A stretch of 64,000 bases of DNA from a virus. Its lineage: Duplodnaviria > Heunggongvirae > Uroviricota > Caudoviricetes. The notes below the pieces were generated by a model. The model made no database searches and was not told where the DNA came from. It saw only the letters and a list, made by a program, of their open reading frames with translations. Within the stretch, counting starts at the first letter, position 1, and each line of letters begins with the position of its first letter. Location: the IMG/VR virus record IMGVR_UViG_2639762884_000001, one strand, 5' to 3'. Shown in pieces: positions 1,236 to 63,717 of the stretch. The position numbers and the translations under genes are program-made.

Positions 1236-1529
1236 ATGTCCGTTTTTAACCAAATGTACCCACAATACCGCAACATCAGTGTCTTGCGAATTAAGATAGG
1301 ATTTATAGAGACTATGTGCAAGTGCATAACTTTGTGGATAACTCGTAAAGGAAAAAGTGGTTTCCGCGGACATTAGTTCAGACAAGGAGTCTGGGAAAGT
1401 CAATGGGAAGTAAAAATTTGTTAAAAATAACGTTTGTTGGAATTGTATATATTTATGCCTTTCAATAGTTAGCATCTTATTAACATCTTTTTTAAGAGAT
1501 AGAGTTCAAAAATATATAGCTTCAACATA

Positions 1530-1549
1530 TACTGTATGCATATACAGTA
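1530..1549 (+). promoter_or_regulatory. LexA (SOS) box
   Basis: TACTGTATGCATATACAGTA: perfect CTGT-N8-ACAG palindrome with AT-rich spacer, 17 nt upstream of the ATG at 1566. Confidence 0.8.
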
Positions 1550-1565
1550 TTAAGAGGCGAGTATT

Positions 1566-1955
1566 ATGGGCTTCCCTTCTCCTGCGGCGGATTATGCTGA
1601 GAGCCGTATTTCTCTTGATCAGCAGATAATTAGACATCCTTCAGCGACCTACTTCATGAGGGCGGCTGATAGTCATCATCGTGAGGGAATATTGCAGGGT
1701 GCATTGCTGGTGGTCGATTCCTCACTGACTCCTGTTGATGGATCTCTTCTTGTATGTGCTCTGGATGGGGAATATCGCGTAAAAAGATACCGGAAGTATC
1801 CACGTCAGCATCTGGAGGATTTAAGAACTGGTAAGAAGGAAGCATTGCCAAAGGATGATGATGGATGCACGGGCAGCAATGCCGTGTTTGGTGTGATCAC
1901 TCACATTATCAACGACGCAAGAAGTGGCGAGTTTGATGATTGTCCTGTGATGTAG
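1566..1955 (+). CDS. UmuD'-like S24 (LexA/UmuD family) peptidase domain protein lacking the N-terminal arm
   Basis: GFPSPAADY...HPSATYF and retained Ser (AADSH) and Lys (RVKR) align with UmuD from its Cys24-Gly25 cleavage site onward; AAGAGG RBS at 1552-1557; in-frame stop at 1551-1553 prevents a longer N-terminus. Confidence 0.75.
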   Translation: MGFPSPAADYAESRISLDQQIIRHPSATYFMRAADSHHREGILQGALLVVDSSLTPVDGSLLVCALDGEYRVKRYRKYPRQHLEDLRTGKKEALPKDDDGCTGSNAVFGVITHIINDARSGEFDDCPVM

Positions 1956-1992: not shown

Positions 1993-3093
1993 TCACACTG
2001 CGCGGAATGCGATTTCGCCAGGTATTACTTCACCTTGCCAATACATTTGGGCAGCAACGCGATCTGCGAGGTCACGATAAATAGCCGTAAATTCGCTATC
2101 TGGACGACTAATAACGGTTGGTGTTCCGTTATCCAGATCTTCACGAAGAGAGATATGAAGTGGCATTTGGCCTAACAACTGCGTGTTGTATTTCTCGGCC
2201 AGTTTCTGTGCGCCACCGGTGCCAAAAATTGGCTCGTGATGACCGCAGTTACTGCAAATATGCACACTCATGTTTTCGACGATACCTAGTACCGGCACTT
2301 CGACTTTTTCGAACATCACAATGCCTTTCTTCGCATCGATCAGCGCGATGTCTTGCGGCGTAGTTACCACAACCGCACCAGTTACAGGAATGTTCTGCGC
2401 CAGCGTCAATTGAATATCACCAGTGCCCGGCGGCATATCGAGAACGAGATAGTCCAGATCAGGCCACAGTGTTTCCTGCAACATCTGCATCAGCGCCTTG
2501 CTGGCCATCGGTCCACGCCACACCATTGCATTGTCGTCGGTGACCAGATAACCAATAGAGTTGGTTGCCAGGCCATGAGACATGATAGGTGCCATGTGAG
2601 TACCGTCCGGTGAGGTTGGACGTTGGTTTTCCGCGCCCAGCATGGTTGGAATTGATGGACCATAGATATCGGCATCCAAAATACCAACTTTCGCACCTTC
2701 AGCAGCCAAAGCCAGTGCCAAGTTTACTGCTGTGGACGATTTGCCTACACCGCCCTTGCCTGAGCTTACGGCGATAATATTCTTAACACCATTAATGCCT
2801 GGTTGGTTTTTGACGCGCTTAAGCGTGGCAATGTTGTACGACAGCTTCCAGTCAATAGCCTTTGCGCCAGTGATACGGAGCAGATCACCACTACATTGCT
2901 CTTTCAGGTCTTCAAAAGACTTATTCCACACGAAAGGCATGATTAGTTCGACATGCAGTGTGTCATCCATCAACGCAACATGGTGTAACGCTTTAAGCGT
3001 AGTCAGGTTGTGTTTCAGGGTTGGGTGCTGAAAATTAGCCAGCGTACCGGCTACCATTGCTCTCAGGGCATCCGGCGATTTGGACTCGCTCAT
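1993..3093 (-). CDS. apbC: Fe-S cluster carrier ATPase ApbC/Mrp
   Basis: 366-aa product nearly collinear with E. coli ApbC (Walker A SSGKGGVGKSS, CSNCGHH motif); divergent from metG as in enterobacterial chromosomes. Confidence 0.95.
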   Translation of the reverse strand: MSESKSPDALRAMVAGTLANFQHPTLKHNLTTLKALHHVALMDDTLHVELIMPFVWNKSFEDLKEQCSGDLLRITGAKAIDWKLSYNIATLKRVKNQPGINGVKNIIAVSSGKGGVGKSSTAVNLALALAAEGAKVGILDADIYGPSIPTMLGAENQRPTSPDGTHMAPIMSHGLATNSIGYLVTDDNAMVWRGPMASKALMQMLQETLWPDLDYLVLDMPPGTGDIQLTLAQNIPVTGAVVVTTPQDIALIDAKKGIVMFEKVEVPVLGIVENMSVHICSNCGHHEPIFGTGGAQKLAEKYNTQLLGQMPLHISLREDLDNGTPTVISRPDSEFTAIYRDLADRVAAQMYWQGEVIPGEIAFRAV

Positions 3094-3250
3094 CCCGTCT
3101 CCTTTATTTTAATTTGCGCAATTGTCGCCTTGTAGTGTACTCCAGCTACGACATTTAATCATTTATGAGAAATGCTGTTATCACATGGCAGACATAAGGC
3201 CATTTTGTTACTATCAAGCCCCTTTTCACTACAAAGAAGTAATGCCTACT

Positions 3251-5284
3251 ATGACCCAAGTCGCGAAGAAAATTCTGGTGACGTGCGCGCTGCCGTACGC
3301 TAACGGCTCAATCCACCTCGGCCATATGCTGGAGCACATCCAGGCTGATGTCTGGGTTCGTTACCAGCGAATGCGCGGCCACGAGGTTAATTTCATCTGT
3401 GCCGACGATGCCCACGGCACACCGATCATGCTGAAAGCACAGCAGCTTGGTATCACACCGGAACAGATGATTGGCGAAATGAGTCAGGAACACCAGACTG
3501 ATTTTGCAGGCTTTAACATCAGCTATGACAACTATCACTCGACGCACAGCGAAGAGAACCGTCAGTTGTCCGAGCTTATCTATACTCGCCTGAAAGAGAA
3601 CGGTTTTATTAAAAACCGCACCATCTCTCAGCTGTACGATCCGGAAAAAGGCATGTTCCTGCCGGACCGTTTTGTGAAAGGCACCTGCCCGAAATGTAAA
3701 GCACCGGATCAATACGGCGATAACTGTGAAGTCTGCGGCGCTACTTACAGCCCGACTGAACTGATCGAGCCGAAATCGGTAGTTTCTGGTGCTACGCCGG
3801 TAATGCGTGATTCCGAACACTTCTTCTTTGATCTGCCTTCTTTCAGCGAAATGTTGCAGGCATGGACCCGCAGCGGTGCGTTGCAGGAGCAGGTGGCAAA
3901 CAAAATGCAGGAGTGGTTTGAATCTGGCCTGCAACAGTGGGATATCTCCCGCGATGCGCCGTACTTCGGTTTTGAAATTCCGAACGCACCGGGCAAATAT
4001 TTCTACGTCTGGCTGGACGCGCCGATTGGCTACATGGGTTCCTTCAAGAATCTGTGCGACAAACGCGGCGACACTACCAGCTTCGACGAATACTGGAAGA
4101 AAGACTCCACCGCCGAGCTGTACCACTTCATCGGTAAAGATATCGTTTACTTCCACAGCCTGTTCTGGCCTGCCATGCTGGAAGGCAGCAATTTCCGCAA
4201 GCCGACCAACCTGTTTGTTCATGGCTATGTGACGGTGAACGGTGCGAAGATGTCCAAGTCTCGCGGCACCTTTATTAAAGCCAGCACCTGGCTGAATCAT
4301 TTTGACGCTGACAGCCTGCGTTACTACTACACTGCGAAACTCTCTTCGCGCATTGATGATATCGATCTCAACCTGGAGGATTTCGTTCAGCGCGTGAATG
4401 CCGATATCGTGAACAAAGTGGTTAACCTGGCCTCCCGTAATGCAGGCTTTATCAACAAGCGTTTTGACGGCGTGCTGGCAAGCGAACTGGCTGACCCGCA
4501 ACTGTACAAAACCTTTACTGATGCTGCTGAAGTGATTGGTGAAGCATGGGAAAGCCGCGAATTTGGTAAAGCGATTCGTGAAATCATGGCGCTGGCTGAT
4601 CTGGCTAACCGCTATGTCGATGAACAGGCTCCGTGGGTGGTGGCGAAGCAGGAAGGGCGCGATGCCGATCTGCAGGCGATTTGCTCTATGGGCATTAACC
4701 TGTTCCGCGTGCTGATGACGTACCTGAAACCGGTACTGCCGAAACTGACTGAACGTGCAGAAGCATTCCTGAATACAGAACTGACCTGGGATGGTATCCA
4801 GCAACCGCTGCTGGGCCATAAAGTGAATCCGTTCAAGGCACTGTATAACCGCATCGACATGAAGCAGGTTGAAGCACTGGTGGAAGCATCCAAAGAGGAA
4901 GTAAAAGCCGCTGCCGCGCCAGTAACTGGCCCACTGGCAGATGATCCGATTCAGGAAACCATCACCTTTGACGACTTCGCCAAAGTTGACCTGCGCGTGG
5001 CTCTGATTGAAAACGCGGAGTTTGTCGAAGGTTCTGACAAACTGCTTCGCCTGACGCTGGATCTCGGTGGCGAAAAACGTAATGTCTTCTCCGGCATTCG
5101 TTCCGCTTATCCAGATCCACAGGCACTGATTGGTCGTCACACCATTATGGTGGCCAACCTGGCTCCGCGTAAAATGCGCTTCGGTATCTCCGAAGGCATG
5201 GTGATGGCTGCTGGCCCCGGCGGGAAAGATATCTTCCTGTTAAGCCCGGATGCTGGTGCTAAACCAGGCCACCAGGTTAAGTAA
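3251..5284 (+). CDS. metG: methionine--tRNA ligase
   Basis: 677-aa product starting [26 protein letters not shown] (HIGH motif), KMSKS present, C-terminal tRNA-binding domain; near-identical to E. coli MetG as recalled. The track ORF start at 3122 is an upstream in-frame extension. Confidence 0.97.
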
Positions 5285-8735: not shown

Positions 8736-9047
8736 ATGAAAAAATCATTGGTTCTTGGTCTGGACAAAGACCAGAAGAGAAAAGAGAAGCCTGCACTGGT
8801 TGCTCAATTAACTTTGCTAGACATCGTTGCCAATGGAACTTCTATTCGTCTGTTCCGTGAAACAGCGGTGTCTTTCGATAAAAACACCTTTACTCGTTAT
8901 GTAATGAATGTTCGTCGCCAGCGTGGAAAAGGATGGGTGGCATTTCAAAGAATGTGGCCGGAACATCAGCTCGAACTGGCCTTGATGGAAGTTAACCGCG
9001 TGGCCCAGCAAGAAATTCAGAGAGCATCAGTGATGGCAATAGCCTGA
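8736..9047 (+). CDS. hypothetical protein (103 aa)
   Basis: ATG at 8736 preceded by GGAG; class A palindrome 8711-8724 directly upstream. The track ORF starts at an upstream TTG. Confidence 0.5.
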   Translation: MKKSLVLGLDKDQKRKEKPALVAQLTLLDIVANGTSIRLFRETAVSFDKNTFTRYVMNVRRQRGKGWVAFQRMWPEHQLELALMEVNRVAQQEIQRASVMAIA

Positions 9048-61086: not shown

Positions 61087-61161
61087 GATGGTGTAGCTCA
61101 GCGGTAGAGCAGTTGGCTGTTAACCAACTGGTCGGTGGTTCGAATCCACCCACCATCGCCA
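61087..61161 (+). tRNA. tRNA-Asn (anticodon GUU)
   Basis: Acceptor GATGGTG/CACCATC, D-arm TAGCTCAGCGGTAGAGCA, anticodon arm GTTGG-CTGTTAA-CCAAC, T-arm GGTGGTTCGAATCCACC; genomically encoded CCA. Confidence 0.85.
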
Positions 61162-61166
61162 ATTTA

Positions 61167-61253
61167 GGAGAGTTAGTCCGTAGAGGTAGCGGGGTAGACT
61201 GTAAATCTACTGTCATTGCGACTCGGGTGGTTCGACTCCATCACTCCCCACCA
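61167..61253 (+). tRNA. tRNA-Tyr-like (anticodon GUA), class II
   Basis: Anticodon arm GTAGA-CTGTAAA-TCTAC, T-loop TTCGACT, variable arm; acceptor stem has one mismatch; ends in CCA. Confidence 0.55.
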
Positions 61254-61257
61254 AATT

Positions 61258-61333
61258 GCCGGTTTAGCTCAGTTGGTAGAGCGCCTGCCTTGTAAGCAGG
61301 ATGTCAGCGGTTCGAGTCCGTTAACCGGCACCA
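61258..61333 (+). tRNA. tRNA-Thr (anticodon UGU)
   Basis: Acceptor GCCGGTT/AACCGGC, D-arm GCTCAGTTGGTAGAGC, anticodon arm CCTGC-CTTGTAA-GCAGG, T-loop TTCGAGT; CCA. Confidence 0.8.
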
Positions 61334-61557
61334 ATACAACGATAAGATCATTACGGTTAATCGTCGTTCATGTGCACAATGACTGGTCGAAAGGTAGTGA
61401 TCTTACCGTTGTGGTGGATTCGCAGACTGATGCGATAGCTTTCTTGGATGTTAGGGAAATGCGGCCGCAAATCTTCCCTTTCGCGAGCGGTGATCGTCCG
61501 TAGTCCTAATTGGCTGCACCGTATGCCGGAGATTCAGTACCGGCTATCACAACGGCC

Positions 61558-61644
61558 GGAGAGTAGGGAGCATGGTGCTCAAGCGGTCTTGAAAACCGTC
61601 CCATTGCGCAAGCGATGATGGTTCGATTCCATTACTCTCCGCCA
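61558..61644 (+). tRNA. tRNA-Ser-like (anticodon UGA), class II
   Basis: Acceptor GGAGAGT/ACTCTCC, anticodon arm GCGGT-CTTGAAA-ACCGT, long variable arm, T-loop TTCGATT; CCA; D-arm atypical. Confidence 0.55.
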
Positions 61645-63535: not shown

Positions 63536-63717
63536 TCCCACCAAACTCACACCTGTTTCCATTAAAATTCAAAAAACAACGCCTGAATGATTCCATACCT
63601 ACTATGTATGGAATCATTGCTGAAAATGAGTTACTTTTACTCTTGATCCTATAAGAATCTATGCCTAATATACTGTTTACTTATACAGTGCATCGGCGTA
63701 ACTCGGTGATTGTCATA

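Follow-up and report, generated by a model that had tools for sequence, protein, structure and literature searches.

The open reading frame at positions 1566–1955 (plus strand) of the window, the whole 64-kb stretch of DNA that was analysed, is an ordinary copy of humD, a phage gene that is already known. It encodes a 129-aa protein of the HumD family, with an S24 domain in the UmuD′ form, Ser36 and Lys73 at the positions of the peptidase dyad, and a C-terminal tail, GEFDDCPVM. The window itself is part of an SSU5-like phage-plasmid of Escherichia coli of ~108 kb and not of the chromosome. The gene is best explained as a LexA-controlled source of pre-shortened UmuD′, dimers of which would arm the host UmuC without RecA-mediated cleavage, and we assign this reading a probability of about 75%. 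An earlier note, made from the sequence alone, had guessed at a UmuD′-form S24 protein under LexA control and without a cognate umuC, and we judge that guess to be right. The interpretation offered there is nevertheless only partly supported, being partly right on the mechanism and mistaken about the rarity of the gene and its genomic setting.

The translation begins MGFPSPAADYAE (MGFPSP) and corresponds to UmuD from residue 25 onwards. It matches the NCBIfam equivalog NF051876, "HumD family translesion DNA polymerase", with 219.8 bits (cutoff 120), its residues 1–129 being aligned with positions 1–129 of the 129-position model, and Pfam PF00717 (Peptidase_S24) with 37.9 bits against a gathering score of 23.3, the latter match covering residues 1–80 only. 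Scores for related families stay below their cutoffs: 87 bits against 110 for UmuD proper (NF007621/PRK10276), from which the protein also departs in having neither the N-terminal arm nor a umuC partner, and 27 bits against 111 for the LexA/CI-type repressor model TIGR00498. No residues at all precede the S24 domain, at whose N-terminal side LexA and CI-type repressors have a DNA-binding domain. Among proteins of solved structure, the closest by sequence are the UmuD′ chains 1umu, 1i4v and 1ay9 together with UmuD 8gmt (E-values from 7e-23 to 2e-17), with LexA far behind. AlphaFold modelling with 32 family members gave a structure of moderate quality (pLDDT 61.7 overall, 76–83 in the core at residues 45–95, and below 50 in residues 1–24 and in the tail at 118–129), which was used solely to confirm UmuD and UmuD′ as the best fold matches, not for active-site geometry; the best five PDB matches in the fold search are all UmuD or UmuD′ (1i4v, 1umu twice, 8gmt and 1ay9). 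Translated searches (tblastn) of phage genomes found the protein with 100% identity in Escherichia phage Cyrano, 98.5% in PhiR41_1, 91.5% in P1 (HumD) and 71% in phiKO2, followed by weaker matches in lambdoid and P22-like phages. Nei-Gojobori comparison with P1 humD gave a dN/dS of 0.043 (dS 0.99, dN 0.042), which shows strong purifying selection on the gene.

The reading frame starts exactly at the glycine that cleavage exposes in UmuD, because both the cut site of K-12 UmuD, which lies between DLVQC and GFPSPAADYVE, and the solved UmuD′ chains, which start with GFPSP, align with the GFPSP of HumD. The alignment with UmuD Gly25 bears out the earlier view that the product begins at the cleavage site and has the UmuD′ form. 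A longer arm is excluded, as had been argued before from the same two signals, by the Shine-Dalgarno sequence AAGAGG at 1552–1557 (plus strand), 8 nt ahead of the ATG at 1566, and by an in-frame TAA at 1551–1553 (plus strand), five codons before that ATG. The idea that a sequencing error upstream masks a full-length umuD is rejected on the evidence of this stop codon, the start conserved across the family, and the 801-nt region around humD, which is 99.9–100% identical in 13 independent assemblies of E. coli plasmids of 108–116 kb.

A sigma-70-like promoter is predicted at 1505–1533 (plus strand), with the −35 hexamer TTCAAA at 1505–1510, a 17-nt spacer and the −10 hexamer TATACT at 1528–1533 (9 of 12 consensus matches). 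The −10 hexamer overlaps the left arm of a predicted LexA operator (SOS box), the palindrome TACTGTATGCATATACAGTA at 1530–1549, which has two mismatches to the 20-nt E. coli consensus and also covers the expected transcription start. This is the sole site within three mismatches of the consensus in the 64-kb window, and no such site occurred in 100 shuffles. The looser pattern CTGT-N8-ACAG, by which an operator over the promoter had been recognised previously and which the predicted box at 1530–1549 bears out, is found three times in the window against 0.76 expected; the match at 8850 was judged a chance occurrence, as it falls within a coding region and has non-consensus flanks. At the other end of the gene, a GC-rich hairpin (1967–1987) followed by a T-run, together spanning 1967–1992, resembles an intrinsic terminator and separates humD from apbC (1993–3093, minus strand), which is convergent with it, as had been noted.

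The gene humD was described for phage P1 in 1999 (McLenigan et al. 1999, J Bacteriol 181:7005), and PMC9603915 counts it among the SOS genes that LexA regulates in P1-like phage-plasmids. In the GenBank record of P1, humD carries the annotation "DNA repair; functionally complements E. coli UmuD'", and a "LexA binding site in the regulatory region of lxr and humD" is marked 19 nt ahead of the start codon; a CRISPRi screen found the gene to be non-essential for P1 lytic growth. P1 HumD (AAQ14181) resembles the protein described here in every major feature: it has 129 aa and is 91.5% identical, starts with MGFPSP at the cleavage-site glycine, is encoded immediately downstream of a LexA box and without umuC in cis, and is carried on a phage-plasmid. 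The elements are different, however, P1 on one side and an SSU5-like siphovirus-type phage-plasmid of the phage Cyrano type on the other. In P1, humD has lxr as its divergent neighbour and phd-doc downstream, whereas here both lxr and hot are absent and a captured apbC-metG segment lies downstream. The two operators differ at four positions, and their spacing to the ATG is 16 nt here compared with 19 nt in P1. In a DNA alignment of the two loci, the coding sequences of humD are homologous (84% of nucleotides identical), as are the arms of the operator, the remaining aligned flanks being unrelated. Because homology is limited in this way, the operator and humD form a cassette that is common to two unrelated phage-plasmid lineages, P1-like and SSU5-like.

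No counterpart of the divergent P1 lxr gene was found upstream of the operator, where the ~90 nt that could be aligned bear no relation to P1 and the annotation has no gene within 770–1565. An 80-aa minus-strand ORF in this interval (1233–1475) is without support, and no tRNA was detected in the ~800-nt gap upstream of humD. Rfam gave a single hit, at the terminator hairpin, whose 21 bits fall short of the threshold of 50. The non-coding segment at 1317–1530 (214 nt, plus strand) resembles DNA of P1-family phages, with 84% identity to P7 91683–91891 and to P1-variant records; the similarity is to their upfN/upfO region, which in P1 is parted from humD by hot and lxr. The preceding ~550 nt (770–1316) are 91–94% conserved in phages CMS-2020a and Cyrano and contain 20-nt direct repeats, AGTCGCCAGATACTTA(C/T)GGC, at 977 and 1150, a further pair of 14-nt repeats at 873 and 993, and a terminator-like hairpin at 1212–1229. 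This stretch has no Rfam or tRNA match. Still further upstream, a 210-aa ORF (137–769) with a hairpin at its end (785–804) strongly matches phrog_21749 and belongs to no Pfam or NCBIfam family.

Searched against 5.8 billion proteins, HumD matched 561 clusters at E ≤ 1e-5, and the family counts given here and below refer to the best 120 of these 561. The members of these 120 clusters are mostly 126–130 aa long and come from Escherichia, Citrobacter, Klebsiella, Enterobacter, Salmonella, Kluyvera and other genera; many already carry the name "HumD family" in NCBI or UniRef. The M-GFPSP start is present in 109 of the 120 representatives, and the longer members, which keep an internal Met at the same position, look like over-extended gene models. 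All 29 HumD-family loci that we collected from GTDB species genomes start with ATG-GGx-TTx (MGF or MAF), though the search pattern favoured such starts. None of the 29 has a UmuC homologue within 4 kb (tblastn with K-12 UmuC), and in 28 of them a LexA-like box is present in the 400 nt ahead of the gene. Three arrangements occur: one box at about −37, as in the present locus; two in tandem, at −63 and −39; and one at about −280, with a conserved 79-aa ORF after it. The gene had been called unusual, which it is not: HumD has been known since 1999, was described for P1, has a curated NCBIfam equivalog of its own and is annotated automatically by RefSeq, and humD-like DNA (at least 80% coverage) occurs in 672 of 5426 complete E. 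coli genomes (~12%), mostly on plasmids, where it was found in 691 places.

Many chromosomal relatives of HumD have either the tandem LexA boxes or the box ~280 nt upstream with the 79-aa ORF in between, an ORF that is absent from the present locus and from P1. This ORF (phrog_3893, without a Pfam match) separates the SOS box from the humD homologue, ahead of which it lies by ~240 nt, at loci L006, L013, L019, L022–L027, L029, L033, L039 and L041–L043 of our collection, and in these chromosomal or prophage relatives it forms an apparent two-gene SOS operon with humD. N15 gp26, the UmuD-like protein of phiKO2 and the HumD homologues of lambdoid prophages (HK140, BTP1, mEp234) belong to the same family (59–71% identity by tblastn) and are likewise encoded by stand-alone accessory genes of temperate phages, but they are more distant than P1 HumD. 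E. coli UmuD and UmuD′ and the plasmid-encoded MucA, RumA and ImpA share the S24 fold, the aligned Ser and Lys positions and regulation by LexA. In contrast to UmuD, to which it is 42% identical over UmuD residues 25–139, HumD lacks the 24-residue N-terminal arm, so that there is no cleavage site and RecA*-mediated activation is not needed; it also lacks a umuC partner in its operon, has a degenerate GDSM motif and carries an extra conserved C-terminal tail. Two distant homologues, L035 (a Chitinophagaceae MAG) and L040 (Pseudomonas), also align at M-GFPSP (from position 4001 of the locus onwards) but have umuC directly downstream, and in L040 a long open frame extends upstream of M-GFPSP; both are probably full-length umuD genes with a Met just before the cleavage site and not of the HumD type.

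The convergent apbC had led to a chromosomal setting being assumed, but the gene is in fact part of a captured apbC-metG segment on an SSU5-like phage-plasmid. The annotation of the whole replicon of a matching plasmid (NZ_JBVDMJ010000004.1) lists portal, terminase, major capsid, tape-measure and tail-tip genes together with RepB and ParB, as well as dnaE, recA, nrdAB, thymidylate synthase, dfrA51, DNA ligase and a four-tRNA cluster. Such gene content, dfrA51 in particular, marks phage-plasmids of the SSU5 type (PMC12217456), and we assign the replicon to this type on that basis. Carriage by a temperate phage or phage-plasmid is evident both from the presence of virion genes next to RepB and ParB on the replicon and from the 100% identical protein in phage Cyrano. 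The absence of umuC downstream of humD, noted before, extends to the entire element: tblastn with K-12 UmuC (E ≤ 1e-3) detected no homologue anywhere on the 108-kb replicon, the window included, and no Y-family polymerase is annotated by PGAP on NZ_JBVDMJ010000004.1.

The catalytic Ser and Lys, which the earlier note had described as retained, are indeed in place on careful alignment, HumD Ser36 and Lys73 matching UmuD Ser60 and Lys97. Their retention probably says little about the function of HumD, however, because in the best 120 of the 561 clusters the Ser position is occupied by Ser in 75 representatives, Thr in 43 and Ala in 2, and because the GDSM motif has degenerated; 117 of the 120 retain the Lys. 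Where UmuD has SGDSM, the family shows [SAG]-x-[ST]-H-[FYH]; one residue is deleted, and the position before the Ser varies greatly. To judge by these substitutions, the peptidase centre looks vestigial and under relaxed constraint, there being no cleavable arm in cis, and the catalytic competence of the S24 dyad in HumD is doubtful.

The last 50 residues had also been described as diverged. This holds for the comparison with UmuD, from which the C-terminal third of HumD has diverged, but not within the HumD family, where the same region is strongly conserved. In particular, a 10-residue C-terminal extension, ...DAR-x-GEFDDCPVM, is at least 95% conserved in the family and absent from UmuD. This tail is probably disordered and, in combining acidic residues with a hydrophobic terminus, resembles the C-terminal tip of E. 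coli SSB, ...MDFDDDIPF. As a long shot, GEFDDCPVM might be a docking peptide that would bring HumD-UmuC to SSB-client sites or compete with SSB for partners. Should this be the case, the phage protein would have gained a property that UmuD′ does not have and, considering also the Ser-to-Thr drift, HumD would be more than a pre-cut UmuD.

From the sequence described here and the P1 annotation, it can be expected that in an uninduced lysogen host LexA occupies the promoter-overlapping operator and keeps humD off, and that humD is transcribed once DNA damage inactivates LexA. By analogy with P1 HumD, the protein would dimerise, bind host UmuC and RecA* and thereby form a translesion polymerase resembling Pol V. 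The activation of UmuD is normally delayed by its slow, RecA*-mediated self-cleavage; this step would be skipped, and the outcome may be an earlier or stronger translesion synthesis that helps to replicate a damaged host or element genome. A UmuC partner from the host should almost always be available, because umuC was found in 5405 of 5426 complete E. coli genomes. Replacement of UmuD′, with binding of UmuC and the RecA filament and with SOS mutagenesis, is on record for P1 HumD only, in the GenBank note, the title of McLenigan et al. 1999 and PMC7092418, and complementation of UmuD′ by the present protein is likewise expected from that of P1. The element's own recA and dnaE, whose products are alternative interaction partners for HumD, count against this explanation, as does the dispensability of humD in P1 lytic growth, and the conserved tail without a counterpart in UmuD′ hints at an extra or different partner. 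P1 HumD reportedly complemented well solely when over-expressed and was poorly expressed natively, so the natural role of HumD may not be mutagenesis as such.

It is conceivable, if unlikely, that HumD is a modulator or decoy and not a polymerase subunit, forming heterodimers with UmuD or UmuD′ or binding RecA filaments, the beta clamp or Pol III subunits (the DnaE of the host or that of the element). Such a protein would tune the SOS checkpoint or shield the replication of the element, and mutagenesis would be a side effect. Against this reading stands the lack of the N-terminal arm, which in full-length UmuD harbours the TFPLF motif for binding of the beta clamp and is responsible for the checkpoint function; in its favour are the DnaE and RecA genes on the replicon and the HumD-specific conserved tail, GEFDDCPVM, that UmuD does not have. 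In addition, P1 humD adjoins hot, which encodes a homologue of the Pol III theta subunit, and umuD gene products bind Pol III alpha and beta (Silva et al. 2012, as cited in PMC4713147). The P1 GenBank record, on the other hand, credits HumD with the complementation of UmuD′.

We regard it as very improbable that HumD, once induced by the SOS response, works as an active S24 serine peptidase in trans, for example on host UmuD, on LexA or on a phage repressor. The drift of the Ser to Thr (43 of the best 120) or Ala (2 of 120) and the replacement of GDSM, accompanied by a one-residue deletion, indicate that selection does not act on the surroundings of the nucleophile, as does the high variability of the Asp before the Ser; the Pfam S24 match ends at residue 80. 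These observations stand against the alignment of Ser36 and Lys73 with the UmuD dyad, the conservation of the Lys in 117 of the 120, and the fact that UmuD cleavage can be intermolecular. The length of the ORF and the missing umuC would also fit a decaying 5′-truncated remnant of umuDC or an assembly artefact, but this is refuted by the low dN/dS (0.043), by the promoter-like site, operator, ribosome-binding site and terminator that the gene has of its own, by the identical sequence in 13 assemblies and a sequenced phage, and by the same start codon in 109 of the best 120 cluster representatives from many genera.

As a LexA-controlled, pre-shortened UmuD′ acting with host UmuC, HumD would illustrate how temperate elements may short-circuit the timing of the host SOS response by means of a pre-activated Pol V subunit. 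To what was known of HumD, the present analysis adds the occurrence of the cassette in both P1-like and SSU5-like lineages, the drift of the peptidase site across the family and the conserved tail that distinguishes HumD from UmuD′. Because such phage-plasmids carry resistance genes (dfrA51 in this case), a damage-inducible mutagenesis factor on them is of some relevance to the evolution of resistance under genotoxic antibiotics.

Several other features of the element deserve mention. The apbC(mrp)-metG segment (1993–5284) is host-derived, with 88.6% DNA identity over 3298 nt to mrp-metG of E. coli K-12; the homology to this chromosomal segment starts at 1997. The encoded proteins are 94% (ApbC) and 99% (MetG) identical to those of K-12, so that both genes are under strong purifying selection. 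The same arrangement is found in the sequenced phage Cyrano and adds a second methionyl-tRNA synthetase on the phage-plasmid. Four tRNA genes are clustered at 61087–61644 (Asn-GTT, Tyr-GTA, Thr-TGT and Ser-TGA). Finally, a LexA-box-like palindrome, TACTGTTTACTTATACAGTG, with four mismatches to the consensus, is located at 63671–63690, 28 nt upstream of the ATG (63718) of a tyrosine recombinase/integrase gene, which suggests possible SOS control of the element's tyrosine recombinase.
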